Below, one piece after another: positions 20,813-39,366 of a stretch of 64,000 nt of DNA (position 1 is its first letter; each line of letters opens with the position of its first letter). The stretch comes from Candidatus Helarchaeota archaeon (lineage in GTDB: Archaea > Asgardarchaeota > Lokiarchaeia > Helarchaeales > RDOG01). The translations under genes were made by a program, and so were the position numbers. The notes beneath the pieces were generated by a model, which saw nothing but the letters and a program-made list of their open reading frames with translations, had not been told where the DNA came from and made no database searches. The stretch spans positions 64,001 to 128,000 of the forward strand of contig JAHPZH010000004.1 in NCBI GenBank assembly GCA_019058315.1, read 5' to 3'.

Positions 20813-21427
20813 TTAGAACACAATTTCAGGAATACTTAATAGGTTTTTTTTGGTGTAATCTTGAATAAAAACCATCGCATCAATAATATCTGCTCGAATA
20901 AGGCCGGGAACATTTATTAAACGTCTATTTTTTTTAATTAGTTCCTTTAAATTTTCTAAAGCCTCAATTTCGGGTTTTAAATTATCGATCAGATTTCCTT
21001 TATCGTTAAAAGCAGTCCTATATAATTCTTTCCAGTTGGTTCCAGTTCCATTCATTAATATATTATAAAATTTTATTCTATTCCTATAAGAATCCTTTAA
21101 GAAACTTATTGCTTCTTCATGAACTTTTGAGCTTTTTCTCAAAACTTGATATATCGGATCTAGACTTAAGACTTCATCAAGTCTATCTTCAATATTTTCA
21201 AAATTTCCTGTAAATTCTTTAGAGAAGCTTAATATTTTATCGAGCATTTCTATAGTCTTTCTGGTTTGTTCGGGACCAATTAAAAGTCTAAAAATAGGTT
21301 CAATCAACGCACCAATAAAGGTGCTTTTAAAATGATCAGATAATTCATTATTTGCGTTTGTTATGGTCTCATTTAGATAGTCTTTTACAATATTAACATT
21401 TTTATCAAGTTCGCTCATTTTCAACAT
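20813..21427 (-). CDS. Hypothetical helical protein, paralog of 20002-20619
   Basis: Same shared segments; overlaps the stop of the HTH-V4R gene (likely start ATG 21418). Confidence 0.7.
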   Translation of the reverse strand: MLKMSELDKNVNIVKDYLNETITNANNELSDHFKSTFIGALIEPIFRLLIGPEQTRKTIEMLDKILSFSKEFTGNFENIEDRLDEVLSLDPIYQVLRKSSKVHEEAISFLKDSYRNRIKFYNILMNGTGTNWKELYRTAFNDKGNLIDNLKPEIEALENLKELIKKNRRLINVPGLIRADIIDAMVFIQDYTKKNLLSIPEIVF

Positions 21428-22100
21428 CTATTTTAGTAATCAGATATTTACAAGAAGGATGATTATCGCATTTACATTCAACTTCTTTAACATCTACTTC
21501 TTCAGGTGCTATAAATTTATCTATAACTCCTTTGAGCAACCCAACTTGAATTTCACATATTGATCGATAGTCTTTATTACCATCACAAATGCAATTTTGA
21601 ATTTCTAAAAAGAAACTATTCTTGATTTCAGGATTTAAGGCAACCTTTGCTTCAACATTTGCAATTGGATACGTAATTTCCACTGCTAAGGCTGCAAGAT
21701 GAGTGATATTTTCAAAATTTAGTTCAACAGATTGAAACTGTTTGGCGTATAAGTCTGAAGCACCATTTTTAGCCATATCTAACCCAATTTCCCTTGCTAT
21801 TTTTTGATCTTTTAGATATTTTCTAAAAAAGGCAGAATGAAGTAATTGGTAGAATTGAACCATGTATAGATTACGTTCTTCAAAATTTTTTGATTTTCGT
21901 GCAGGATAAAACAATTTGGAAGTTGGTCCCTTCTCAATTTTATAAATCAAATCTTTTTCTGCCAGTTCTTCTAAATATCTCGCTGTTGAATTTCTATTAA
22001 GGTTGATTTTTTCAGCAATCTGTGAAATTGTCAACCCTAAGCTTTCTGTTTCTAGCAGATTAAGTATTTTAAATTTCTGTCTTGAAGATCTTACATTCAA
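21405..22100 (-). CDS. wHTH-V4R (4-vinyl reductase domain) transcriptional regulator
   Basis: LTISQIAEKI.LNR.S..RYL.EL HTH; C.C, C....G.L.G, E.EC......C.Y V4R pattern; GGTGA SD plus TTG. Confidence 0.85.
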   Translation of the reverse strand: MNVRSSRQKFKILNLLETESLGLTISQIAEKINLNRNSTARYLEELAEKDLIYKIEKGPTSKLFYPARKSKNFEERNLYMVQFYQLLHSAFFRKYLKDQKIAREIGLDMAKNGASDLYAKQFQSVELNFENITHLAALAVEITYPIANVEAKVALNPEIKNSFFLEIQNCICDGNKDYRSICEIQVGLLKGVIDKFIAPEEVDVKEVECKCDNHPSCKYLITKIDVENERT

Positions 22101-22136: not shown

Positions 22137-22150
22137 CTAAGTGTTTTTTT

Positions 22151-22185
22151 TTGTTTATCACGTTTTTTCTTGTTTATCACGTTTT
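22151..22185. repeat. Direct repeat TTGTTTATCACGTTTT x2 (period 19)
   Basis: Exact 16-mer at 22151 and 22170 in the divergent intergenic region. Confidence 0.75.
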
Positions 22186-22463
22186 ACTTTAAGATTTTAA
22201 AAATATAATTTAATAACTTAAAAGTATTTTAAAATCATAAAATATTTCTTAAATAATTAATAGCAAATTTGGAGGGTAGTTTTGCTAGTAAGTAAGATTT
22301 TTAAGGCTATAGTTGTCTTTTTTTAACTAATTTGAAAAAATCATTTGATATTTATAATTATAAAATATTAATTTTTATAAATTCAATCCAAAGAGGAAAA
22401 ATATTAATAATTTTGGCAAATATGCAATAATTCGATTAATAGAAAATTTGCTATAATTCTAAA

Positions 22464-25094
22464 ATGAAAATGAAGGGATGTTTTTTGACAGCAGTTGAAG
22501 AGTTTTTTAACGGAAAAAATAAAATTTCAGATCGTGTTCATAATTCTAAGATTATTATAGAGCGAATGGAAGAAATAAACGGTACTTCCCAATTTTTTGC
22601 TGATAGATTGGATAGAAGAATTAAAAAATCAGCAGTTAATTCTCTTCCCGTAGTCGATACTTTCCTCGATTTCTTCCAAATTTCAATTTTAGAGACAATT
22701 TTACAATTTTTTGATCTTCGAGTTAAAGAAATAATCGTAGGCATGGAAAGAATCCCTGAGGAGGCTGTAATTTTTGCTCCTAATCATGAGACCGAAACAG
22801 AGCATCTATATCTTGCTCGTGCTTGTTGCGAAAGGAGGGATTTAGATTATCCTTTTAGAATTTTAAAATTTCTAAATCCTAAGCAAATCGCAAGGAAAAA
22901 ACAGGTTCCAATCTTTTTTGCAAAATATCAATTATTTAACTTGCCGATAGTCAGCACTCTTTTTTCATCTACTGCTTTCCCTGTGGAACGGGAAATAAAG
23001 GATACTAGATCATTAGAAATTGGCAGTAGATTTCTCCAAAGGGGGTCTAATATTCTAATTTATCCCGAAGGAACAAGAAATTTGGAGAAAAAAGCAAAAC
23101 CAAAATCTGGAGCGGTTCGTCTTGCCATTCAAAACAAAGTTCCAATTATTCCAGTTGGACATGTTGGCTTATATGAGCTAACTAAAGGTAGTTTCGTTCC
23201 GAGTAGAAACGGGTACTGGCATTGTGAGTTCGGTGAGCCAATATATTACGACAAATATTACAATCAAGAGGTTGATTACTTAACCTTAAGAGAATTAACC
23301 GACGAACTTATGGATGAAATAGAAAAACTAAAAGAAAATGGTAGGAGAAAAATAAAGGAATTAAATGAAATAAAAGACAATAAAGCATATAGTGGTCATA
23401 TTAATGAAGTGGTGGTACATAAATTTAATAAATTGAATAAGGTTCCAAACAACCCAATTGATTCTTTATTTCGGAGTTTCATGAATTTCACTTCAAAAAT
23501 CCCCATTATTGGAGAACGAGTTGATTCCTTTTTTCATTTCTTAGTTCGTTTGGGTGTTGATTCTTTAATAAATCCGTTAACTTTTGACGTCAAAATTAAT
23601 GGTAAGGAAAACCTAGAAGGTGTAAAACCCGCTGTAATTTGTTCTAATCATGAATCTTTTCTAGAAATTGGACTATATGGTTTGTATTTAATTGATCCTA
23701 AAATGACAAATTATTATGGTTATCTACTACCTGGAGATAATAATAGCATAGATAAAACTTGGTTTATGATGAAGAAGGAACTTGCAGAAATGCCAATTGT
23801 TTCCAGTTGGACTCTTTCTGCTGGTGGTTTTCCGGTAAGAAGAGGGGAAAGTGACAAAGAAGCAATGCGAGTTGCAGAAGAATTAATTAAACGAAATAGA
23901 AATGTGGTAATGTTTCCTCAACAGACTACTTATCCTGAAATTGACGTAGATTCCGGAAAAACTGGAGCAGTGCGCTTAGCAATTGATGCTAAGAGACCAG
24001 TGATTCCAGTATCTATTAAGGGATCACACAATGCTATGAAAAGAGGAGTTTTACAACTTCTTTTCCCACCCAAAGCATTTCCTATTGAAATTAATATTGG
24101 AAAACCGATTTATTATGAAGAATATTATGATAAGGAACCCACATATGAAGAATTGAAGACATTAACTAGAGATTTAATGATTAAAATAAAAGATATGCAA
24201 GATAAGAAAATCGTTGAATATAAGGAAAATAATAATAGAATTCATTCACCAGTAGATTGGATATTTAAAAGTATAGGAAATTTAGTGGGATTACCAAGAA
24301 GAAATTTGCAGGATTCGACTAGAAAACTCCCTTTTGAAAAAATTGTAAATAAAATAACTGATTCAGCAGGAATTACAAGCACAGTTAGTAAAAAAGACAA
24401 GTCAAAAGAACCAGTTTCATTAAATATGATTGATTCATACTTAATGCGTTTGAAGAAACAAGGAGAAAAATTAGGATTATTTCCATTCTTAGACGATCTT
24501 TTTTATTCTTTTACAAAACGTTCATTGGATTTACTAATAAAGAATCTATATAATTTCAAAGTTGAGGGTGCTGAAAATATACCTACTAACGGAGACGTAG
24601 GAGTAATCCTTCTAGCCCAAAGTGGGTCTCAACTTGATTTTGTTATGGGAAGTTGTATTATTCCTGAAAAAGTTCACTTTATGATTGATTCTAAAACTTA
24701 CAAAATGCCTGTTGTATCGACGCTTCTTCAATCTCTTGGGTTTTTTCGTCAATCCGTCTCACAGACAGATTTTGGACCACTTTTACATGTTAGAGATCTG
24801 TTAAAAAGCAAGAAGATTGTTGGAATTTTTCCTCAAATTAAAGGAAAAGAAAACATGATTAAATACATTGCAGGCATTTTAAAAATGGCAATTGATGGGA
24901 AACCGACTATTATCGTTCCACTAGCAATTAAAGGGACAGACACACCAATTCCACCTGTCAATATTAATGTGGCGATAGGTAAACCAATAGGACCATTCAA
25001 AAGAATGAAACGAGAGAAAAGGTACGAACTTGCAGAAGAAATATATAATAATATCAAAGATGTGAAAACTCAAGCCTATGAGATGAGAAAATAA
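22464..25094 (+). CDS. Lysophospholipid acyltransferase with three tandem PlsC domains
   Basis: NHETETE/FAK/YPEGTR/KSGAVRLA; NHESFLE/FPVRRG/FPQQT/KTGAVRLA; degenerate third domain (SQLD, IFP, IVPLAI.GT). Confidence 0.85.
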   Translation: MKMKGCFLTAVEEFFNGKNKISDRVHNSKIIIERMEEINGTSQFFADRLDRRIKKSAVNSLPVVDTFLDFFQISILETILQFFDLRVKEIIVGMERIPEEAVIFAPNHETETEHLYLARACCERRDLDYPFRILKFLNPKQIARKKQVPIFFAKYQLFNLPIVSTLFSSTAFPVEREIKDTRSLEIGSRFLQRGSNILIYPEGTRNLEKKAKPKSGAVRLAIQNKVPIIPVGHVGLYELTKGSFVPSRNGYWHCEFGEPIYYDKYYNQEVDYLTLRELTDELMDEIEKLKENGRRKIKELNEIKDNKAYSGHINEVVVHKFNKLNKVPNNPIDSLFRSFMNFTSKIPIIGERVDSFFHFLVRLGVDSLINPLTFDVKINGKENLEGVKPAVICSNHESFLEIGLYGLYLIDPKMTNYYGYLLPGDNNSIDKTWFMMKKELAEMPIVSSWTLSAGGFPVRRGESDKEAMRVAEELIKRNRNVVMFPQQTTYPEIDVDSGKTGAVRLAIDAKRPVIPVSIKGSHNAMKRGVLQLLFPPKAFPIEINIGKPIYYEEYYDKEPTYEELKTLTRDLMIKIKDMQDKKIVEYKENNNRIHSPVDWIFKSIGNLVGLPRRNLQDSTRKLPFEKIVNKITDSAGITSTVSKKDKSKEPVSLNMIDSYLMRLKKQGEKLGLFPFLDDLFYSFTKRSLDLLIKNLYNFKVEGAENIPTNGDVGVILLAQSGSQLDFVMGSCIIPEKVHFMIDSKTYKMPVVSTLLQSLGFFRQSVSQTDFGPLLHVRDLLKSKKIVGIFPQIKGKENMIKYIAGILKMAIDGKPTIIVPLAIKGTDTPIPPVNINVAIGKPIGPFKRMKREKRYELAEEIYNNIKDVKTQAYEMRK

Positions 25095-25109
25095 TTAGAG
25101 GATAGTTTA

Positions 25110-26486
25110 TTGACGGAATTCACAGAACCAATTCATGCAAAGGAATATGAAAATTTGCCATCCGAGCAAAAAAAGCAAGTAATTAGTCTAAATTACGGTA
25201 AGAAAATGTTACAATTAAAGATTCCAAAACATAATTTTAATGGTCTTATTGAACCAACCGAATTAAAACAAACAAATTCAGATAATCTAAAAATGCTAAA
25301 TAATGCATTAGATAATCCACATAATTGTAATTTGGAAGAATTAATTAAAAATAAGAAAGTATGTATTCTTTTAGAAGATGGAACTAGAAAATCACAACAT
25401 GAATTAATAATTGATGTTGTGACTAACAGATTACAATCTGCAAATAAAATCTCTTATGTAATAACTACTGGGTCTCATGATCCAGATACGGATGAGAATG
25501 AAAAGATAACTGACGCTATTATGGTAGCTGTTGAAAAACATCTAATTCCAAATGTTGAAATTTTAATCCATGATTGCTTCAAACATGAATATATCGATGT
25601 GGGTACAACTAGTTTTGGAACTAAAGTACTAATAAATAAGTTTGCATCCAATTATGATGTTTATTTTGTAATTTCTGATATGAAAACTCATTATTTTGCT
25701 GGATATTCAAATCCAATTAAGAATTTTCTTCCTGGAATTTGTGCTTATGAGACAATTGAAAAAAATCATTCATTAGCACTAGATGATTATTCAACTTTTT
25801 GCAGACACCCTTTACATCCCGAAAAAAACAAAAAAAGACAACCTTTAGCAGAAGATATGCTTGAAGCTGTTTATTTGATGACAAAAAATGCCAATATATT
25901 TGTTTTAGGATTAATTTCTTTAAAAAACAAGATAATATGGTGTGAAGCTGGAGATTTAGCAACTGTTACGGCTAATGGGATTCAAAAAGTAAATCAAATT
26001 GGAAGTTTCGTTTTAGAAGAAAAATCTGATTTTATTATAGTTTCTGCTGGGGGATATCCTTATGATGGTAGTCTTTATGATTCTCAAAGGGCTTTAGAAT
26101 TAACTAAAAATGCTCTAAAAGACGGAGGGGAAATTCTGTTCTTAGCCGAATGTGGAATTGGAGATGGCATCGCACCAAATGAGAAGGCTAAGAAATTTTT
26201 CTATGATGAATTATCAAAACCGTTAGATGAGGTTTTAAGAGGTATAGAAAAAGAATATAAATTATATACTCATAAAGCATATAAATTTGCTAAATTATTA
26301 AAAAATTCAAAAATTTGGGTTAAATCAGGTTTAAATAAAGAAATTTTAGAAAATATTCACTTAAATCCAATCATTGATAATCCTCAAAAAATTATTGATA
26401 ATTGGATAAATCAAAAACCAAATGCCAAAATTACTGCATTTAATCATGGCAGCAAATTGGCTATTTATATTAATAATGGAGGTTGA
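25110..26486 (+). CDS. LarA-family (nickel-pincer) racemase/epimerase homolog (DUF2088)
   Basis: D.TR, TGSH, HDC, HYFAGYS...K..LPG, NH, SAGGYP.D..LY. Confidence 0.85.
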   Translation: MTEFTEPIHAKEYENLPSEQKKQVISLNYGKKMLQLKIPKHNFNGLIEPTELKQTNSDNLKMLNNALDNPHNCNLEELIKNKKVCILLEDGTRKSQHELIIDVVTNRLQSANKISYVITTGSHDPDTDENEKITDAIMVAVEKHLIPNVEILIHDCFKHEYIDVGTTSFGTKVLINKFASNYDVYFVISDMKTHYFAGYSNPIKNFLPGICAYETIEKNHSLALDDYSTFCRHPLHPEKNKKRQPLAEDMLEAVYLMTKNANIFVLGLISLKNKIIWCEAGDLATVTANGIQKVNQIGSFVLEEKSDFIIVSAGGYPYDGSLYDSQRALELTKNALKDGGEILFLAECGIGDGIAPNEKAKKFFYDELSKPLDEVLRGIEKEYKLYTHKAYKFAKLLKNSKIWVKSGLNKEILENIHLNPIIDNPQKIIDNWINQKPNAKITAFNHGSKLAIYINNGG

Positions 26487-26489
26487 AAC

Positions 26490-27956
26490 ATGGCAATAAT
26501 AACAAATGAAGACGTAAATTTAAATGAAAAGAAAGCAATAATATTCGACTGGGATGGAACGCTGTTCAACAGCTTTCCAGCAATTAAAACAGCAACCAAA
26601 GATGTATTAGAAAGATTTGATATTGACTATCCCGTTGATGATGCAGTCATACAATTTTTAAATCTAATGGAAGAAATCAATACAAGTACTCTTTCAGAAA
26701 TAGTATTAAATTCATATAAAATATTAAATAAAATAACATTTATCAAAAATCTATCATATACAAAGAAATTACAATTACTATTTCTGATATATTCAACATA
26801 TAAAAAATACAATGAACAATCTCAATTATTTAAGGGAACTGTCGAGTTATTAAACAATCTATCTAAAAAATTTGATTTGGCAATCTTTACAAGTTCAAAG
26901 AGAAAGGTTATTTTAGAATTATTAGAAAAATTCGGTATTAAAGAATATTTCAAATCCGTCTTAAGTATGGATGATGTTAACAACCCAAAACCAAACCCAG
27001 AAGGTATATTGAAAGCAATATCAGAATTAAATCATGGCCCCGATAACATAATTTATGTAGGCGATTTAAAAACAGACATTTTAGCTGCTAGAGCTGCAAA
27101 TATCAGTTCTATAGCCGTATATAATGGTCTAGTTCAAAGGGAAGAAATTTTAAATCAACAGCCAGATTTATTCTGTGAGCATATAACAGAACTCTCAAAA
27201 TTCTTTGATTTCCCAGAAATCCAAGTTGACCCAAAGGCTGATTTTGAAGCAGATATAGAGTTCCATGCAAAAAAGATAAAAACATATGTTAGAGAAGAAT
27301 TTAATATATTCGAATTATTAGATAACGTTGTTCCAAAAAATTTGGAAACAGAACATGTTATTAAAATAGTAGGCGATCCCTTAGGTTTCATTGGAGCAAT
27401 TGTTGAGGATGTTATTACTAATTATACCCATGGGGAATTTGAAATGAGTTCTGAACTCGATGTATTTACAGGTTTAGAAGAAGATTTATTGCGATCATTA
27501 GGTCTAATTATCATCCATTTTGTTAATGAACGATCCAACAATATGATTAAAAGAATCGTTGAAAATGAATTACTTCGTATTCCATCTAATATTATGCTAG
27601 GTCTTCTAAAGATATCATTAAAAAATTTATATCCAGAAGGATATAAAGAAAATTTTAAAACATTTTTCTTAGGATTATTCCAAAGAATTATTCCACAAGA
27701 TATTTATGATGAGCTAGAGACACTAGATCCACATGAATTTTCAAATCACGTTCTAGAAGGATGCGAACTTGCTTTAATCGATTTAGGATTAAAAAAATCA
27801 GGAGAATTTAATATTCCTATGAATGAACTAGCTTTTAGACCGTTCAATTTCGTCCTTAAATTCATAAATCAAACATTTGGAAGGATGTTCGAACGCTATA
27901 GGAAAATTGCATTGGATATTTTAGAAAATGATTTCAGACGTCTACCAACGAATTAA
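26490..27956 (+). CDS. HAD-family phosphatase with long C-terminal extension
   Basis: FDWDGTL, TS, KPNPE, YVGD...D; about 240 extra residues of unknown function. Confidence 0.85.
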   Translation: MAIITNEDVNLNEKKAIIFDWDGTLFNSFPAIKTATKDVLERFDIDYPVDDAVIQFLNLMEEINTSTLSEIVLNSYKILNKITFIKNLSYTKKLQLLFLIYSTYKKYNEQSQLFKGTVELLNNLSKKFDLAIFTSSKRKVILELLEKFGIKEYFKSVLSMDDVNNPKPNPEGILKAISELNHGPDNIIYVGDLKTDILAARAANISSIAVYNGLVQREEILNQQPDLFCEHITELSKFFDFPEIQVDPKADFEADIEFHAKKIKTYVREEFNIFELLDNVVPKNLETEHVIKIVGDPLGFIGAIVEDVITNYTHGEFEMSSELDVFTGLEEDLLRSLGLIIIHFVNERSNNMIKRIVENELLRIPSNIMLGLLKISLKNLYPEGYKENFKTFFLGLFQRIIPQDIYDELETLDPHEFSNHVLEGCELALIDLGLKKSGEFNIPMNELAFRPFNFVLKFINQTFGRMFERYRKIALDILENDFRRLPTN

Positions 27957-27968
27957 CAGGTGATGTAA

Positions 27969-28997
27969 ATTAAAAAGAAGATCGGTATTCCTAGAAGTTT
28001 ATTGTATTATAAATATTATCCCATATGGAAGGCATTTTTTGAAGAACTGGACTTTGAAGTAGTTTTAAGTGATAAAACTAATAATAAAATCATGGATGAA
28101 GGGAGCAGATACGCTATAGACGAAATCTGTATTCCTTTAAAACTCTACTACGGTCATGTTCTTAATTTAATTCGAAAAGAAATTGATTATCTATTCGTTC
28201 CACGATATATTTCCACCACTTTCGGCACATATATGTGCCCAAAGTTTTTAGGTCTACCAGATATGGTAAGAGGAACTCTAGATAACCTTCCAACGATTAT
28301 AGAACTTGAAATTGATTTGAGAAAAAAGCCGAATTTTTATTCTGCTTACGAAACTGGGAGACAATTGAATAGACCTGTCTCTAAAATAATGAAGGCATTC
28401 AATAAATCAATTAAAATATATAAGTTTTTTAGAGAAATAATGGAAAGAGGATTTACATTTCAACAAGCTCTTGCTCTAATAAATAAAAATCCTTCAGAAA
28501 TACCACAAAAAGCAGAGGAAAATAATGCAGAAGCTACTATAGCAATAATAGGGCACGGATATAATATTCATGAACCCTTTATTAACATGGATTTGTTAAA
28601 AAAACTGAAAAAAATGAATGTAAAAGTAATAACATTGGAGAATTTGCCTATAGATATTTTCAAAAAACGAACTATAATCACAAACACCCTAAAAAATTAT
28701 TGGGGTAACGAAGAAGAAATTCTATCCGCAATGAATTATTTATTTGAACAGAAAGATATTGACGGGATAATCTTCATTTGTAGCTTTTGTTGTGGTCCTG
28801 ATTCGTTAATTGATGAAATAATTACAAGAGATGCAAAAAAAATTAATCTTCCATACATCTGCCTTGTTTTAGATGAGCATTCAGGACAAGCTGGAGTAAT
28901 AACAAGGATTGAAGCATTTGTTGATATGATAATTCGTAAGAAGAAAACATTGAAATTAGAAAAAATAGAAAAAATAAAACTAAAAACACCAGATTAA
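27969..28997 (+). CDS. CoA-activase-associated DUF2229 protein (PlsA/Ger reductase-module-like); probable ATT start
   Basis: KIGIPRSL lies upstream of the track start (28002); C.PLK...GH, CPKF.G.PD, CSFCCGPD, DEH.G.AG..TRIEAF. Confidence 0.8.
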   Translation: MKKKIGIPRSLLYYKYYPIWKAFFEELDFEVVLSDKTNNKIMDEGSRYAIDEICIPLKLYYGHVLNLIRKEIDYLFVPRYISTTFGTYMCPKFLGLPDMVRGTLDNLPTIIELEIDLRKKPNFYSAYETGRQLNRPVSKIMKAFNKSIKIYKFFREIMERGFTFQQALALINKNPSEIPQKAEENNAEATIAIIGHGYNIHEPFINMDLLKKLKKMNVKVITLENLPIDIFKKRTIITNTLKNYWGNEEEILSAMNYLFEQKDIDGIIFICSFCCGPDSLIDEIITRDAKKINLPYICLVLDEHSGQAGVITRIEAFVDMIIRKKKTLKLEKIEKIKLKTPD

Positions 28998-29023
28998 CGA
29001 ATATAAATCGGTGAATACAGTAA

Positions 29024-30139
29024 ATGTTAGTGACTTTCCCTCATATGGGCAATTGTTGGCCTGCTTTCAAAAGCCTTTGCGAAAATATGGGTGCAGATGT
29101 CTATTTACCCAATGAAAATAACACTCAACAGTTAAAAGTAGGATTAAAACATTCCCCTGAATGGGTTTGTTTTCCATTTAAAGTCACACTTTCAAATTTT
29201 GTTGAATGTCTTGAGAATAACGTGAATAAAATAGTAATGGCCACAGATTGCGGACCATGTAGATTCGGATTCTATTATGCTGTCCAAGAGCGCATTTTAA
29301 AAGATTTAGGCTATGAATTTGATATGTATCATCTCCCTCAAGGAGATCTTTTAACTTTAGAATGGGCGGATTTCCTCAGATCAATTTGTGAAGATAAATC
29401 CTATGCTACAACATTAAACATCTATAGGACAGCAAGGGTTTATTTAATGAAATGTCAATTAATTCAAATCACAGAAAAATTAGAAGGTAAAACTAGGTGT
29501 TATGAAAAAAATAAAGGAGATACAACTAGATGCCTTAAACGTTGCGTTAGAATGATTGACGATGCTAAAACTTACTCTCAATTGAGAAAAACAAGATGGA
29601 AAATTAAGGAAGAATTTAAGAAGATTGATCAACACAAACACAATGGTCAAGCTCTTAAAGTAGGTTTAACTGGGGAGATTCAAGTAACTTTGGATCCTTT
29701 TGTTAACCACGATATTAAACGAAAATTGGGAGAATTGGGATGCGAAGTCCATATGGACTTGAGTCTATATGATTGGATGAAGCACAAATTCCATATTAAT
29801 TTCCATAGAAAATATGTTGAATATTTAAGTAAAACACATAAAAAAATCGGGGGAATTCAATTGGATATTGGAGGAGAGGCATACTGGGTTTTAGGCGAAT
29901 ACATAAATTGGGCTCATAAGGGGTTTGATGGATTTGTACATATTTATCCATTTACTTGTATGCCTGAAATAACCGCGAAATCCATTATAACGAAATGGTA
30001 TGGCGACGAACGCTTTCAACTCCCTCCAGCATTTTTCGGATTTGACGAACACGCTGGAGAAGCCGGTTTAGTTACCCGACTGGAGGCATATACCGATTTA
30101 TTAAAAGCAAAAAAGGAGAAAAAAAATGGTAATAGTTGA
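29024..30139 (+). CDS. 2-hydroxyacyl-CoA dehydratase-like / PlsR-like subunit
   Basis: TFPHMG, SPE..CFP.K, GPCRFG.Y, PFTCMPE, DEH.GEAG..TRLEA. Confidence 0.8.
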   Translation: MLVTFPHMGNCWPAFKSLCENMGADVYLPNENNTQQLKVGLKHSPEWVCFPFKVTLSNFVECLENNVNKIVMATDCGPCRFGFYYAVQERILKDLGYEFDMYHLPQGDLLTLEWADFLRSICEDKSYATTLNIYRTARVYLMKCQLIQITEKLEGKTRCYEKNKGDTTRCLKRCVRMIDDAKTYSQLRKTRWKIKEEFKKIDQHKHNGQALKVGLTGEIQVTLDPFVNHDIKRKLGELGCEVHMDLSLYDWMKHKFHINFHRKYVEYLSKTHKKIGGIQLDIGGEAYWVLGEYINWAHKGFDGFVHIYPFTCMPEITAKSIITKWYGDERFQLPPAFFGFDEHAGEAGLVTRLEAYTDLLKAKKEKKNGNS

Positions 30140-31130
30140 AGAAAAAGTATCTGATAAAAAAACTTTTGGTGATTTATACTTAGGCATTGATGTAGGAAGT
30201 GTTTCTACAAAATTTGCAATAATTGATGACAATATGGAGCTGAAATATGCCACTTGGGCAAGATCTAAAGGCTCACCTATTACCTCTATCCAAGAAGGAT
30301 TTGATAGTTTAAGAAAAAGTCTATCTGATGAAATGGAATCACGGATTAAAGGAGTAGGAACCACAGGATCTGCAAGATACTTAACTAAAGCACTTGTGGG
30401 TGCAGATATTGCAAAAACTGAAATTATTGCTCATGCAGTGGCAGCATCTTACTATATTCCTGGCGTTAGAACCATCTTGGAAATTGGAGGTCAAGATAGT
30501 AAAGTAATACTGCTGAAAGATGGAATTATAACCGATTTTGCCATGAATTCTATTTGTGCAGCAGGAACTGGTTCATTTCTTGATCATCAAGCACACAGGT
30601 TGGGAATAGCTATAGAAGAATTTGGTGAGATGGCAGCTAAATCAAAAGTAGGGGTAGTTATTGCTGGTAGATGCACTGTTTTTGCAGAATCAGACATGAT
30701 ACATAAACAACAGATGGGACATTCTAAAGAAGATATAATAAAAGGACTTTGTGAAGCATTGGTTCGAAATTATTTGAATAATGTTTGTAAAGGAAAGAAA
30801 TTAGAACCACCAATCACTTTTCAAGGTGGAGTTGCTGCAAATTCGGGAATAAAAACAGCCTTTGAAAAGGAACTAGGGCATGATATTATAATTCATGATT
30901 ATTTCCTTACGATGGGAGCAATAGGAGCTGCAATGTTAGCAAGAGAGCATATTTTAGGTGAAAATACAACAACTAGCTTTCGTGGATTTAAAGTTAGTGA
31001 TATGAAATTTACACCAAAAGCTTTCAATTGTTCTGATTGTCCCAACCAATGTGAAGTCACTTATGTTGAGAAGGATGGCGGAGATATTATTGCTCGTTGG
31101 GGCGATAGATGTGGTAAATGGACTATGTAG
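30126..31130 (+). CDS. ATP-dependent CoA-substrate activase (BcrAD/BadFG/HgdC family)
   Basis: GIDVGSVSTK, TGS.R, EI.AH, EIGGQDSK, CAAGTGSFLD, RCTVFAESD, C-terminal CxxCxNxC. Confidence 0.92.
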   Translation: MVIVEEKVSDKKTFGDLYLGIDVGSVSTKFAIIDDNMELKYATWARSKGSPITSIQEGFDSLRKSLSDEMESRIKGVGTTGSARYLTKALVGADIAKTEIIAHAVAASYYIPGVRTILEIGGQDSKVILLKDGIITDFAMNSICAAGTGSFLDHQAHRLGIAIEEFGEMAAKSKVGVVIAGRCTVFAESDMIHKQQMGHSKEDIIKGLCEALVRNYLNNVCKGKKLEPPITFQGGVAANSGIKTAFEKELGHDIIIHDYFLTMGAIGAAMLAREHILGENTTTSFRGFKVSDMKFTPKAFNCSDCPNQCEVTYVEKDGGDIIARWGDRCGKWTM

Positions 31131-31138
31131 GTGATTTT

Positions 31139-31324
31139 ATGGCGTATGTTATTAGAAAAACCCTAGATGTCCTTATTAATCGCTTTATTTTTGAAGATCG
31201 TGTTAGAATTTCGGAATTTGTAGATATGATAACAGATAATTTATATAAGATTCTGCCAAAAAATTTGGTAAGACCTGTTCATGAAATATTAGATGCTTTT
31301 GTCGACGAACTCATGTGGAGTTAA
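31139..31324 (+). CDS. Small hypothetical protein (61 aa) closing the operon
   Basis: AGGTGA SD overlapping the upstream stop, then ATG at 31139. Confidence 0.6.
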   Translation: MAYVIRKTLDVLINRFIFEDRVRISEFVDMITDNLYKILPKNLVRPVHEILDAFVDELMWS

Positions 31325-31504
31325 TGTATTTTTATTTTTTATAATTTATACTGTCCTTTTTTCAGAAAAAAGAAAAATATTATAAGACCATTAAATAGGT
31401 TTTTATAAGTTATTTTTCAGACTAATAAGCGATAGAATATTATTTAGCACAAATTTTACTATTACATTAAATTAAAATTATTTGTAAATGGAGCGATTTT
31501 AAAA

Positions 31505-33124
31505 TTGGTTACCAGTTCTATAATTAAAACTACACAAAGTTTATGTCCAGAATGTAAAAAGGTTATTGATGCACAGATAGTGGAAGAAAATGGCAAAGTA
31601 ATGATGTATAAAAAATGTGAAGAACACGGAAATTTCTCGGATATATTATCTATTAATCCAGCCCACTTTAGATGGAGCCAACAATTTATGATTAATGGAC
31701 AAAAACCAGATAATCCATGTACTTCAACCAAAAAAGGCTGTCCATACGATTGTGGAGCTTGCGAGAAACATAAAAGCTCTCCAGCCATTGCAATTGTTGA
31801 TGTAACATATCGATGTAATTTAAAATGTCCAATCTGTTTTGCTAATGCAGAGGCTCGTGGGCTTAATTATGAACCTTCATTTGAAGAATTAGTTAGAATA
31901 TTTAAACATTTTAGAAATATAACTCCTCAACCTCCAGTTTGTGCAATGTATGCTGGTGGTGAACCCACTATGCGAAATGATTTACCTGAGTTGTTGGCTG
32001 AATGTATTGATATGGGCTATATGCAATTACAGGTCGCTACAAATGGCATAAGATTAACAAATATAGATTATTTTCAAGAATTAATTGACGCTGGAATGCC
32101 AAAAAAGAAAAATAGTATAACTAGAACTGTCGTCTATCTTCAATTTGACGGAATTGAACGTGAAACATACCTTAAAACAAGAGGGGTTGACATTCTCGAT
32201 AAAAAATTAAAAGTAGTAGAAAATGCAAGAGAATTAAATTTTCCAAATATAATTTTAACACCAACAATCGCTAAAGGGGTTAATGATCACGAAGTTACAA
32301 ATATTCTACAGTTTGCTATTGATAATATCGATGTAGTAAATACAATTATGTATCAACCCATGGCGATGTGCGGGAGATTTGAAAAAGAAAAGCTCCACGA
32401 AATGAGAATTACCTCTTCACACTTAGCTAAACAAATATTGGATTATACAGGCGGAAAATATGGGATGGTCTACCCGTTACCTACAATTTCAGAATTTGCA
32501 AAAATCATCGCTTGGATGAGCAATGAGGAACCAGTCGAATTTACTTGTTCCGCAGATTGTGGCTTTGCGAACTTTTTATTTGTAGACCCAAACACTAAAA
32601 AATTAAAAGGACTCGAAGATTTAATTAATTCAAAAAAATTTCTCGACGTTTGCCATAAATGGTATGAGCGAGTTGAGAGAGAAAAGAAATGGGAACGCGA
32701 AGGAAAGAGTGGAAGTGTTCTTGACCAAATAAGAAAACAAATAACTAAATTTAGAATCTTTGGCGAAATCGGCCAATATATTAGACCTCCGAAACTAGAT
32801 GCAGAAGATATTTCCCATTGGGGGCATATTGTCAGAAACTTTTGGGATGTTTTAGTCAATACATCATGGGATTCAAGTGCAAATTGGTTAATTGGCGGAA
32901 ACGTTCTTCTGGTAGGCTTGATGCACTTCCAAGACTTATATAACTTCGATATTAATAGAGTAAATCGATGCTTAGTTCATTATGGTTACATAGATCCAGC
33001 TACAAACCAAGTTAGACAAATCCCGTTTTGTGCTATGAATGCTGTTCATAGGGAGCGCATTGAAGACGAACTAGAGCAAGCTGATAAAATGGTTCAATAT
33101 ATTCCCGAAGTAAAATCTAATTAA
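31505..33124 (+). CDS. tes: Tetraether lipid synthase / GDGT-MAS radical SAM enzyme
   Basis: T.SLCPEC..C..HG, CPYDCG.C..H, CNL.CP.CFA, YLQFDG, C..DCG, MHFQD.YNFD..RV.RC..HY, IPFC..N. Confidence 0.88.
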   Translation: MVTSSIIKTTQSLCPECKKVIDAQIVEENGKVMMYKKCEEHGNFSDILSINPAHFRWSQQFMINGQKPDNPCTSTKKGCPYDCGACEKHKSSPAIAIVDVTYRCNLKCPICFANAEARGLNYEPSFEELVRIFKHFRNITPQPPVCAMYAGGEPTMRNDLPELLAECIDMGYMQLQVATNGIRLTNIDYFQELIDAGMPKKKNSITRTVVYLQFDGIERETYLKTRGVDILDKKLKVVENARELNFPNIILTPTIAKGVNDHEVTNILQFAIDNIDVVNTIMYQPMAMCGRFEKEKLHEMRITSSHLAKQILDYTGGKYGMVYPLPTISEFAKIIAWMSNEEPVEFTCSADCGFANFLFVDPNTKKLKGLEDLINSKKFLDVCHKWYERVEREKKWEREGKSGSVLDQIRKQITKFRIFGEIGQYIRPPKLDAEDISHWGHIVRNFWDVLVNTSWDSSANWLIGGNVLLVGLMHFQDLYNFDINRVNRCLVHYGYIDPATNQVRQIPFCAMNAVHRERIEDELEQADKMVQYIPEVKSN

Positions 33125-36538: not shown

Positions 36539-36559
36539 TTTTTCCCCTATCTTATTATG
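36410..36559. repeat. 150-bp direct repeat, copy B (copy A at 37645-37794)
   Basis: Ungapped; 18 mismatches by my count (about 88% identity). Confidence 0.9.
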
Positions 36560-37617
36560 TTGAAAGTTGAAAGTGTTTTATCCAAATTTTCCCAATTTTT
36601 TGTTAATTTCTTCAATAATTTACTAATACGTTTAAGATATATATCACTTAAAGATTGTGTCTTATCTGTATGGGAAAGAATTGAATTAGCTGCCTCTATA
36701 CCACTAATAAACGCAGCAGGGATTCCTTCACCAAAAATATTCATTAAACCTGCGGCCTCACCAACAAGGAGAATATTATTTTTACCAAATTTAAATCCTG
36801 GTTTAAAATCCTTTTTCAATATATTTGGTTCCATACAACCTTCTTTTCTAATTTTCTCTTCTATTCTTAATCCATACCCCTCTTCTAAATATTCAATAAA
36901 CTTTGCATGAAATTTTTGTATATCTTTTCCTTTAAAAGCTCCTACACCAATAATAATTTGACCATTTTTTTGATTTGACCATGCATAACCATCCGAGAGT
37001 CTCTTATCCAGAAAAGCATAAAAATATCTGGGATCTAAATCAATTTTTCCTTTATAATATTCTTGAAAAATCGCTACATACTCTAATTTAAAATCTGGAT
37101 AAAGAATTTTTCGAACAAAACTTGTTCCTCCATCTGCACCGATCAAATAGTCAGCATTTACATTTATAATTTTATTTTGATTTGTAATTTCATCCTTTAT
37201 TTTCATTTCTATAATTAATTTATCTTGTTTAGAAGAAAAATTTTGAAATTCTGTATTAGACCAGACTTCTGCTCCAGCTTCACTTGCTTTTAATACAAGC
37301 CAATAATCAAAATCTCTCCTTAATACGTTATAAAATCTATCAGGGACTTTTATAAATTCAGAATTCATATTTAATTGAATCTGAACTCCTTTCCCTAATC
37401 TTGGTCTGACGCAGACAGCCTTAGGAATTGGCATGGATTCCTTCTTAAGAATATTTTGAGCTTCTTTAGAAACAAGTCCACTACAGATTTTATGTCGTGG
37501 GAGAGATTTTTTCTCAATTAATAAAACATTTTTTTCAGCATCTGCTAATTTTTTTGCAGCAATAGCTCCCGCAGGTCCACTACCCACTATTATTACATCA
37601 AAGGATTTTTCTTTCAT
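36547..37617 (-). CDS. Geranylgeranyl reductase-family FAD oxidoreductase
   Basis: DV.IVGSGPAG, R.K.CSG, R..FD.WL, GADG..S, GYAW, VGEAAG.....GEGI. Confidence 0.85.
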   Translation of the reverse strand: MKEKSFDVIIVGSGPAGAIAAKKLADAEKNVLLIEKKSLPRHKICSGLVSKEAQNILKKESMPIPKAVCVRPRLGKGVQIQLNMNSEFIKVPDRFYNVLRRDFDYWLVLKASEAGAEVWSNTEFQNFSSKQDKLIIEMKIKDEITNQNKIINVNADYLIGADGGTSFVRKILYPDFKLEYVAIFQEYYKGKIDLDPRYFYAFLDKRLSDGYAWSNQKNGQIIIGVGAFKGKDIQKFHAKFIEYLEEGYGLRIEEKIRKEGCMEPNILKKDFKPGFKFGKNNILLVGEAAGLMNIFGEGIPAAFISGIEAANSILSHTDKTQSLSDIYLKRISKLLKKLTKNWENLDKTLSTFNIIR

Positions 37618-37641: not shown

Positions 37642-39366
37642 TTAAAATTCATCCATTATCTTATTTATTAAAATTTCTAATTCGTCTTTTGAAAGTTGTC
37701 CAATTCGTAAATCCAGTAAATAGTTTGGTAATCCCAAGCCACGTACCAACACCATACTTTGTTTTTTAGTCATTTTTTCCCCCATCTTATTATGATATAT
37801 TATAAAACTTTCTTTTAAAGCATTGCTTACTTTTTTTGTTCCTTGTTCCAATGTTTCTCTTAATATATATCTACTAGGTTCTAGGTCAAGTAATAATTCC
37901 TTGAGTATAGGTGTCACTCTATAAAGATAGCTGATTTGAGAAAAACGAGGTTCATAAGCTTCTGGAGGAATTTCTGCAATCATATTCCATTTCCAAAATA
38001 TTTCTAGCAGAATTTTTGTAATTAATGAAATAGTGACGGTAATGGATTTTAAATCAATATCTTTAAAACGAATCGGAAGTGCTATATAAACACTTTTACA
38101 CTCCTTAATTTGTATCCAATCAATTATTGCATCTAAATTAAAAATGGGAGATTCAACGACTAATTTTTCATAAATTAATTGTTCAGAAGTGCCCAGCTCG
38201 ATATTTTTAACAACAATTCCCTTTTTCATAATTTGATTTTGCAATGGTCCAAATGTAGGGTTAATAAAGCCAATGAATTTGGGAGATCCTACTAAAAGCT
38301 CACGTATAAGTATATTTATTGGCTTCTCTTGGATTAATTTATGCCTTATTGAAGGACTTAATAATTGAGTAAGATCTTCTTTTTCTGTATAACCCGAATA
38401 TATAGATCCAATCATTTCAATAGGACGCTTGATATGGTATTTCACAGGAATTAATTTAAAAAGATGAGAAGTTGAGCCAATGGACTGAGCCTTTAGATAA
38501 ACATTAAAATTTTCCAAAATAGTCCTTGCAACTAATCCTAGTTCATTTAAAAGTTCTTGAAATTGAGTTCCTATAAATAAATCATTTGGACTGTAACCAA
38601 AACAAGAATAGATTATTCCATTAGTAGTTAATGCGTTTATTGCATGTGTAAGAAAAAGCTTAGCACCATTTATTGTAAAAGGTGGATCGGTAAAAACTAC
38701 ATCAAATGAAGATAGTAATTCGCTAGGAAATCCCAATCTTAAATCTTGATGGTGAGTTTTGATTTGAAATGAATGTTCATCAGCAATATTTTGAATTAGA
38801 GACAGTAATTGATCATCGATATCTACTACATGGATTTCTTTAGGACCTCCTTTTTTTGCAGCAGCTAATGAAGTCATATCATAATCTCCTAGGAAAAGGA
38901 TTTTTGAGTTGCTTAAGGCATTCTCTCTTTCTAAAAATAAAACTCTACGTAATAAAGTATTTATCGTCGCATTAAATTGATCTAAAGAACGTTTTGGAGG
39001 AGATCTTTTAATCAAAATATTTTTAAGAAAAAGGGAAATTTCCTCTATTTCTTTTGTATAGTCTCCTAAATTAATCCAGTCAAATTTTTTCAAATCACTC
39101 AATTTAAAGTTATTTAAGAATTTTTGAAATACATCTTTACCTTCTTTTGTAACTTTGATATATTCTGATGGGCTTAAAAGAAATATTTGAAGTGGTTTAA
39201 GGATTTTTATTATTATAGACTTAGGAAGCCTGCTCATTTGGATAAGTTTATTCATTGTTAATTCATAAGAAGATAATATTATGGTTATTATATCTTTGAA
39301 ATAACTTATTTGAACATCTGACTTGTTGATTAAATCAAGGAGATTATTTAAAGTAGGCTCAGCCAA
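37642..39366 (-). CDS. Branched-chain polyamine synthase (BpsA)-like protein fused to a degenerate KsgA/Dim1-like domain
   Basis: DQ..AT..T..RR, FLGDYD.TS, VDID, DLR, FTDPPFT; C-terminal half with INPTFGPL..IEL, VVESP, IPPEAYEP, LRIGQLS. Confidence 0.7.
   Translation of the reverse strand: MAEPTLNNLLDLINKSDVQISYFKDIITIILSSYELTMNKLIQMSRLPKSIIIKILKPLQIFLLSPSEYIKVTKEGKDVFQKFLNNFKLSDLKKFDWINLGDYTKEIEEISLFLKNILIKRSPPKRSLDQFNATINTLLRRVLFLERENALSNSKILFLGDYDMTSLAAAKKGGPKEIHVVDIDDQLLSLIQNIADEHSFQIKTHHQDLRLGFPSELLSSFDVVFTDPPFTINGAKLFLTHAINALTTNGIIYSCFGYSPNDLFIGTQFQELLNELGLVARTILENFNVYLKAQSIGSTSHLFKLIPVKYHIKRPIEMIGSIYSGYTEKEDLTQLLSPSIRHKLIQEKPINILIRELLVGSPKFIGFINPTFGPLQNQIMKKGIVVKNIELGTSEQLIYEKLVVESPIFNLDAIIDWIQIKECKSVYIALPIRFKDIDLKSITVTISLITKILLEIFWKWNMIAEIPPEAYEPRFSQISYLYRVTPILKELLLDLEPSRYILRETLEQGTKKVSNALKESFIIYHNKMGEKMTKKQSMVLVRGLGLPNYLLDLRIGQLSKDELEILINKIMDEF
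37645..37794. repeat. 150-bp direct repeat, copy A (3' end of the BpsA-like gene)
   Basis: Aligns without gaps to 36410-36559. Confidence 0.9.

Follow-up and report, generated by a model that had tools for sequence, protein, structure and literature searches.

The closest described relatives of the system reported here are bacterial enzymes that convert ester lipids to ether lipids: the anaerobic plasmalogen synthase PlsA/PlsR, known from C. perfringens (CPE1194/1195) and, in single-gene forms, from Enterococcus, Lactococcus and Bifidobacterium, and the glycerol ester reductase Ger, known from T. maritima (Tmari_0479) and D. alkenivorans (SHJ90043; PMC13159169). The module order Act1-Act2-Red1-Red2 has been described for PlsA and for Ger, the latter written BBDH... 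(PMC13159169; PMC12838417). In Asgard archaea, homologues of PlsC and of Ger have been noted separately, as scattered genes (PMC6737245, PMC13159169), those of Ger, in fused form, in Lokiarchaeota and Heimdallarchaeota (PMC13159169), and homologues of PlsY have likewise been published. Here, we describe an operon of a Helarchaeales archaeon in which an acyltransferase gene of family PF01553 stands together with three genes, g4, g5 and g6, that are collectively related to PlsA/PlsR and Ger. The operon occupies positions 22464 to 31324 of the analyzed stretch of DNA (the window; 64,000 nucleotides [nt], G000:C1:64001-128000), which is part of a genome of 5.79 Mb in 12 contigs with ~30% G+C and 94% completeness. 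The literature searched contained no description of this operon.

Seven packed genes on the plus strand make up the operon, and 180 nt further downstream follows a Tes-family gene (Table 1), with successive intergenic distances of 15, 3, 12, 26, -14 (an overlap), 8 and 180 nt. This arrangement agrees with an earlier reading of the same DNA (the original prediction), whose domain assignments (three PlsC domains, LarA, HAD, activase, DUF2229/HGD-D and Tes family) were also borne out by Pfam and NCBIfam. Our preferred interpretation, to which we assign a probability of roughly 0.4, is that the operon would encode a conserved route of acyl-lipid synthesis combined with ester-to-ether reduction. 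We favor it because of the full-length collinearity of g4 to g6 with a fused bacterial protein, the conservation of cysteines, the linkage with PF01553 genes in both directions, the presence of a fused-clade protein pair in the operon of some relatives and the existence of g4-g5 fusions beside an activase.

Together, g6, g4 and g5 span the 1403-aa bacterial fused protein P0143 end to end and in collinear order. The g6 protein aligns with both activation domains of P0143 at 46-47% identity, with its Cys-rich tail falling on the linker at residues 590-638, and contributes one activase domain per chain versus the two (Act1 and Act2) of P0143; g4 matches residues 671-1005 (E = 1.8e-46) and g5 residues 1010-1399 (24% identity, E = 4e-26). 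Three cysteines of g4 (Cys54, Cys90 and Cys275) are invariant, three conserved cysteines are kept in each of the Red modules (g4 and g5), and two cluster cysteines are retained in g6. These alignments support the trio as a split counterpart of PlsA/PlsR/Ger. It shares the BcrAD_BadFG, Red1 and Red2 modules with PlsA/PlsR and the BBD(H)... domain content, as well as an anaerobic host, with Ger; it differs from PlsA/PlsR in being divided among three genes and in having just one activase domain. By analogy with HgdC, g6 is probably an activase that acts as a homodimer. As part of the preferred interpretation, g4 and g5 would form the Red1/Red2 heterodimer of an ATP-driven iron-sulfur reductase, a contact that can be argued from the existence of bacterial Rosetta-stone fusions of g4 and g5 (670-765 aa, encoded beside an activase). 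An exhaustive search returned 1371 cluster representatives of the g5 family at E ≤ 1e-3; the best 150 of these are mostly stand-alone proteins of ~360 aa, complemented by two-module proteins of ~690-770 aa in which g5 matches the C-terminal half, and none of the 150 attains the length of the fused forms (~1400 aa). Since a single split subunit, at 330-370 aa, corresponds to only about one quarter of a query of ~1400 aa, split systems of this kind were probably missed by the published Ger survey, which used thresholds of ≥30% query coverage and E ≤ 1e-50 (PMC13159169).

With HgdABC and HadBCI, the trio has in common the activase fold, the cluster-binding cysteines and, by implication, the ATP-driven injection of electrons into a carbonyl group, and g6 indeed matches HgdC (1HUX; 5e-37) and HadI (7e-34). 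Together with the occurrence of LarA in the cluster of this genome, this could be taken to identify the trio as a classical 2-hydroxyacyl-CoA dehydratase of amino-acid or lactate fermentation, to which LarA would feed the (R)-2-hydroxy acid. However, the catalytic subunits are at best marginally similar: g4 matches HadC and other dehydratase-family chains in the PDB over its last 70 residues only, at E values of 0.008-0.02, and g5 shows no match to classical dehydratase subunits among the solved structures, as opposed to the far stronger matches of both to the PlsA/Ger-type P0143. Moreover, no CoA-transferase or other CoA-ester gene is found in the cluster, and LarA is missing from most of the operons. 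The trio thus does not group with fermentation dehydratases, and we regard that scarcely credible reading as largely refuted.

The position of the trio relative to the fused proteins was assessed in a tree of Red1 modules (109 rows, rooted on Red2 modules), in which the taxa with characterized PlsA or Ger are represented by taxonomic proxies from metagenome-assembled genomes. All fused forms fall into one clade (support, 99), which includes the proxies from Thermotogaceae, Thermodesulfatator, Scalindua, Desulfobacteraceae and Clostridia, as well as a 985-aa Asgard form. A second clade unites all split g4 proteins, that of the window among them, with the bacterial g4-g5 fusions. The window trio is therefore best described, from its place in the tree, as a family sister to the fused PlsA/Ger type rather than as a member of the characterized clade; the PlsA/PlsR/Ger likeness claimed in the original prediction stands as a module-by-module match to P0143 and fails as a placement within the fused clade. 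Bacterial systems annotated as "acyl-CoA dehydratase activase-related protein," found for example in Dehalococcoidales, belong to the same clade as the window g4 (34-41% identity) and in every case have an activase next to them, but in these systems Red1 and Red2 are fused and neither an acyltransferase nor a HAD gene adjoins them.

Relatives of g4 occur in 118 of the 301 genomes sampled from the phylum, and in two families belonging to its Lokiarchaeia-type class they reach 61/68 and 7/7. In each of the 19 orthologous class-level loci sampled, PF01553 genes lie immediately upstream of g4, and they have this placement in loci L058, L059, L061, L071 and L154 too. The linkage holds in the other direction as well: the acyltransferase gene of the operon is the only PF01553 gene of its genome, and of five further genomes that were checked, four have all three PF01553 domains inside the cluster. 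A short HAD protein (244-261 aa) is linked in 16 of the 19 class-level loci, in which the genes usually follow the order HAD, two-domain acyltransferase, g4, g5, g6 and single-domain acyltransferase without the catalytic histidine. Four relatives have, directly after g4 and in place of g5 and g6, a fused-clade protein of 985 aa with the modules Act-Act-Red1 and a 466-aa Red2-like protein, which by their modules are a PlsA/PlsR-like pair; the window genome itself, when searched, yielded the split locus only and no fused form. The constant association with an acyltransferase at the class level distinguishes the operon from the two-gene plsA-plsR operon and from the three bacterial g4-g5/activase loci that we examined, all of which lack one; these three loci also have no HAD neighbor and offered no functional context. 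We also observed a second set of paralogues in Lokiarchaeia, with the order g4'-g6'-g5' (L069, L070, L048 [1437-2438] and L052); several genomes have g4' and g6' in one frame with a single TGA between them, and in G186 no stop separates them, so that they could be adjacent genes, fusions or products of read-through.

The three PF01553 domains of the acyltransferase are located at aa 92-232 (D1), 376-519 (D2) and 698-823 (D3). D2 is closest to bona fide PlsC and matches the T. maritima PlsC structure 5KYM at 1e-6, and D3 is similar to the acyltransferase part of lysophospholipid acyltransferases of the Aas type. The catalytic histidine of D3 is absent from every orthologue and also from the separate D3-type genes and fragments (175-238 aa) of the class relatives; in Helarchaeales, this third domain has been fused onto the first gene, whereas the class relatives encode it separately. 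Within the preferred interpretation, the protein would thus combine two catalytic PF01553 domains with a conserved third domain lacking the histidine. That D3 contacts the reductase is only an idea.

Several observations weigh against a role of the operon in lipid synthesis and ester reduction. First, D1 and D2 of the window copy both carry HX4E instead of the catalytic HX4D; D1 has HX4E in all six Helarchaeales orthologues, but D2 has HX4D in the other five. Second, the ancestral start of g4 appears to have been lost. Its orthologues start at GTG, as in L058, and where L058 reads GTG GTT TTA, the window reads GTG ATG TAA, placing a stop at codon 3 (27960-27970; TAA at 27966-27968). The starts that remain are ATT at 27969, which keeps the invariant GIPR motif, and TTG at 28002, which drops it and widens the gap between the HAD gene and g4 from 12 to 45 nt; a sequencing error, initiation at the ATT and an N-terminally truncated protein without GIPR are all possible. 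Third, the window g4 lies outside the fused clade that holds the proxies of the characterized Ger/PlsA taxa, and paralogous trios in other Asgard families, which reach up to eight matches per genome, have an acyltransferase neighbor in none of 11 loci. The trio family is therefore not tied to lipids as a whole, and our inference is limited to this acyltransferase-linked clade. Fourth, no transmembrane segment is predicted in any protein of the cluster, the acyltransferase included. Finally, the genome (94% complete) yielded no gene for PlsY and no convincing gene for GpsA or for KAS (type II fatty-acid synthase); it does carry a G1PDH-like gene; and the lipid analysis of a cultured Lokiarchaeon is cited in PMC13400652 as having detected archaeal lipids only.

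The failure to find PlsY, GpsA and type II fatty-acid synthase in the genome would fit an operon that remodels or salvages scavenged bacterial phospholipids, by re-acylation and ester reduction, with no de novo synthesis. The resemblance of D3 to Aas-type lysophospholipid acyltransferases points the same way, as does the fact that bacterial PlsA/PlsR and Ger likewise use pre-formed lipids (PMC9702350; PMC13159169). On the other hand, the conserved cluster contains no lipase, phospholipase or lipid transporter. Sequence cannot separate salvage from the preferred interpretation, and we consider it quite improbable.

The main rival to acyl-lipid synthesis with ester reduction, which we nonetheless regard as unlikely, is a pathway that makes or modifies a soluble acylated hydroxy acid or another non-membrane metabolite. 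Here, the PF01553 domains would acylate a soluble acceptor, LarA or Ldh_2 would provide the right stereoisomer of a 2-hydroxyacid, the HAD enzyme would dephosphorylate a small phospho-acid and the reductase would perform a ketyl-radical reduction or dehydration on the ester. The lack of predicted transmembrane segments is in line with such a pathway, as are the large size of the split trio family and its mostly non-lipid surroundings. Further points in its favor come from the accessory genes. The slot between the acyltransferase and HAD genes is occupied by LarA in the window genome, L034 and L058 and by Ldh_2 in L059, i.e., by two unrelated families of 2-hydroxyacid enzymes in different genomes, and the HAD protein, which is phosphoglycolate-phosphatase-like and scores below all equivalog cut-offs, is closest to phosphoglycolate and sugar-phosphate phosphatases. 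Yet the same slot is empty in L033 and L061, LarA lies upstream on the opposite strand in L154, and most class-level operons have neither LarA nor Ldh_2. LarA is thus optional within the order, and its inclusion in the cluster by the original prediction applies to this genome and only some of its relatives. The proximity of D2 to bona fide PlsC and the occurrence of a fused-clade PlsA/PlsR-like pair within the operon of four relatives also speak against a soluble product.

Among NCBIfam models, the one for malate racemase fits the LarA homologue best (232 bits; cut-off, 500), and the closest solved relative of this protein is Mar2 (6d6z; 1.3e-43). Like lactate racemase and Mar2, it has both domains of the nickel-pincer nucleotide (NPN) racemases and, in an alignment with 6d6z and 2yjg, keeps the catalytic His pair, the NPN-binding Lys and the Ni-binding His (residue roles that we take to be those of L. 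plantarum LarA), but its score is far below every substrate-specific model. A LarC gene (PF01969; 373.5 bits) is present elsewhere in the genome, on contig C6. The substrates known so far for LarA enzymes are 2-hydroxy carboxylic acids; racemization of glycerol phosphate was considered and is unsupported, the alternative occupant of the slot being an Ldh_2 enzyme. In the literature searched, no precedent is described for LarA in an operon with acyltransferases. The HAD protein carries an all-helical extension of ~250 aa that is conserved in seven orthologues and, among the loci compared, was seen only in Helarchaeales; it has no Pfam family and no usable Atlas match, and its AlphaFold model, with a mean predicted local distance difference test score of 52.6, shows no confident fold. 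The small g7 protein, without a match in Pfam or NCBIfam, is kept after g6 in Helarchaeales loci only (38-45% identity in L033 and L034), and in L058, L059 and L154 its position is taken by open reading frames (ORFs) of 58-69 aa.

The original prediction proposed that the locus makes fatty-acyl glycerolipids, reduces them to ethers and couples them tail to tail by means of the adjacent Tes-like enzyme, giving lipids that are hybrid or resemble glycerol dialkyl glycerol tetraethers of the branched type (brGDGTs). The Tes-like protein does have the features of Tes/GDGT-MAS (NF045702; MJ0619 type): a radical SAM domain (PF04055; 1.9e-21) with CX3CX2C at aa 104-111, an N-terminal zinc ribbon (PF23545, Zn_ribbon_HMPTM; 1.5e-19) and a full-length match to NF045702. 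This match, however, reaches 427.5-429.5 bits, under the equivalog cut-off of 450, and the gene is one of four Tes-family paralogues in the genome (pairwise identities, 28-76%; Table 1). It is 76% identical to the copy on C5 and 28% identical to the best-scoring copy, on C3, which suggests that it stems from a recent duplication and is a spare paralogue and not the main tetraether synthase of the genome; in G213, a class relative assembled as a single contig, one match to it was found at E ≤ 1e-30. Its closest relatives are P0221 (93%), P0222 (81%) and P0223 (78%), and NCBI names its orthologues just "radical SAM protein."

The recent origin of this copy could be read in favor of tail-to-tail coupling, all the more since P0222 (in L154), the only orthologue with visible context, follows the operon after an identical 180-nt gap in spite of different flanks on both sides. 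A contig from an independent study reaches, at ~98% identity, from g5 into the beginning of the Tes-like gene, so that the junction is not an assembly artifact. In contrast, orthologues of the C5 copy and genes of apparent pre-duplication type adjoin unrelated genes, and no Tes-like gene lies beside the operon in L034, L058, L059, L061 or any class-level locus sampled (the contig of L033 stops ~950 nt past g7). Of the synteny proposed at the outset, the link to plsC is therefore class-wide, but that to tes is confined to this lineage and one relative. The 180-nt spacer has diverged between the window and L154 except for a nearly identical block of ~23 nt, likely the Tes-like gene's own promoter, of which no copy occurs upstream of the operon (six matches at ≤3 mismatches, versus 7.3 expected by chance). 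Given this conserved TATA-like block and the T-runs that follow g7, the Tes-like gene seems to form a transcription unit of its own that was acquired by the locus recently and locally. Activity of Tes homologues on fatty chains is, in addition, unconfirmed in the literature (PMC11868695). A functional tie to the operon is possible; the full pathway of the original prediction strikes us as very unlikely. As a separate observation, contigs from two runs of another study have 22 other letters in place of the 268 nt at 31266-31535 (end of g7, spacer and start of the Tes-like gene); one flank of this exchange measures only 21 nt, and the contigs may stem from another organism.

For acyl-lipid synthesis with ester-to-ether reduction, we envisage the following course. 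Acyl-CoA-derived chains would be esterified by D1 and D2 to an acceptor of the glycerol phosphate type, and the HAD enzyme would then take off the phosphate. ATP hydrolysis by g6 would boost low-potential electrons into the reductase, which would turn the ester carbonyl into an alk-1-enyl or alkyl ether. The fused D3, the HAD extension, g7 and the variable LarA/Ldh_2 slot would be additions of the Helarchaeales, and the Tes-like gene, with its own promoter, would have settled downstream of the operon in this sublineage. Three MCR-alpha-like genes are present in the genome (C5:377506, C3:198869 and C11:316902), consistent with an alkane-oxidizing way of life of Helarchaeales, and a possible contribution of these genes is a supply of alkane-derived acyl-CoA, which would favor this course. 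The ester-to-ether chemistry is plausible, and brGDGT-like products are speculative. A bolder version, in which an NPN racemase and a newly duplicated Tes-family enzyme have joined the operon of this Helarchaeales sublineage so that acyl chains end up in tail-to-tail coupled ether lipids, brGDGT-like or hybrid, appears highly improbable to us; the chains would perhaps be alkane derived, with a stereocenter possibly inverted, in an alkane-oxidizing Asgard archaeon.

Table 1. Positions of the genes and elements of the locus (window coordinates) and of the other Tes-family genes of the genome (contig coordinates)
Feature	Position	Strand	Evidence
Divergent regulator, winged helix-turn-helix (IclR/MarR-like) with MsvR/V4R-like C-terminal part	21405..22100	-	Pfam HTH_IclR 2.9e-7; NCBIfam MsvR C-terminal at 165-221
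Triple PF01553 acyltransferase fusion, 876 aa	22464..25094	+	Three PF01553 stretches, total E 1e-44
LarA-family NPN 2-hydroxyacid racemase/epimerase homologue	25110..26486	+	Lar_N 6e-37, LarA_C 3e-8
HAD-IA phosphatase (aa 1-240) with ~250-aa C-terminal extension, 488 aa	26490..27956	+	HAD_2 1.3e-35
g4, putative Red1 module of split reductase	27969 or 28002..28997	+	DUF2229 (PF09989) 6e-48, HGD-D 3e-8
g5, putative Red2 (PlsR-like) module of split reductase	29024..30139	+	Weak DUF2229 2e-9
g6, single BcrAD_BadFG ATPase activase with Cys-rich C-terminal tail	30126..31130	+	PF01869 7e-49; TIGR00241 197 bits
g7, acidic helical protein of 61 aa, final operon gene	31139..31324	+	ORF, conserved in Helarchaeales loci
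Conserved block with TATA-like box in the 180-nt spacer	31386..31408	+	Near-identity to L154
Tes-family radical SAM paralogue	31505..33124	+	Radical_SAM, Zn_ribbon_HMPTM, NF045702
Tes paralogue	C3:1397037-1398554		NF045702 568.6 bits; only one above cut-off
Tes paralogue	C5:258201-259760		NF045702 428.8 bits
Tes paralogue	C2:46113-47747		NF045702 382.7 bits

The divergent regulator gene upstream of the operon has orthologues in the same position in L033 and L034 (60-66% identity), and V4R/helix-turn-helix genes hold this position in L058, L059, L061 and L154. Between this gene and the operon, a motif of ~16 nt, TTGTTTATCACGTTTT, occurs twice in tandem (22150-22190) and is a candidate operator, without an exact copy in the other loci compared. 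On the other side of the locus, 3.4 kb beyond the Tes-like gene, a minus-strand gene encodes an FAD protein of the geranylgeranyl-reductase family (36547-37617; TIGR02032, 137 bits, below the cut-off). A 574-aa protein with a BpsA_C (branched-chain polyamine synthase) domain is encoded at 37642-39366, also on the minus strand.

In summary, genes that had been reported as scattered are found here joined in a single conserved operon, which in most of the genomes checked contains all PF01553 domains, and two over-readings are corrected, with "tes" being in all likelihood a spare paralogue and the trio a sister family of PlsA/Ger. The vague idea of bacterial-type lipids in Asgard archaea is thereby replaced by a defined, expressible set of five to seven genes. 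That this operon is a route to non-isoprenoid ether lipids is unproven; if it does yield fatty-chain ether lipids, it would be relevant to the change from archaeal to bacterial membranes in eukaryogenesis and to the anoxic sources of non-isoprenoid ether lipids.

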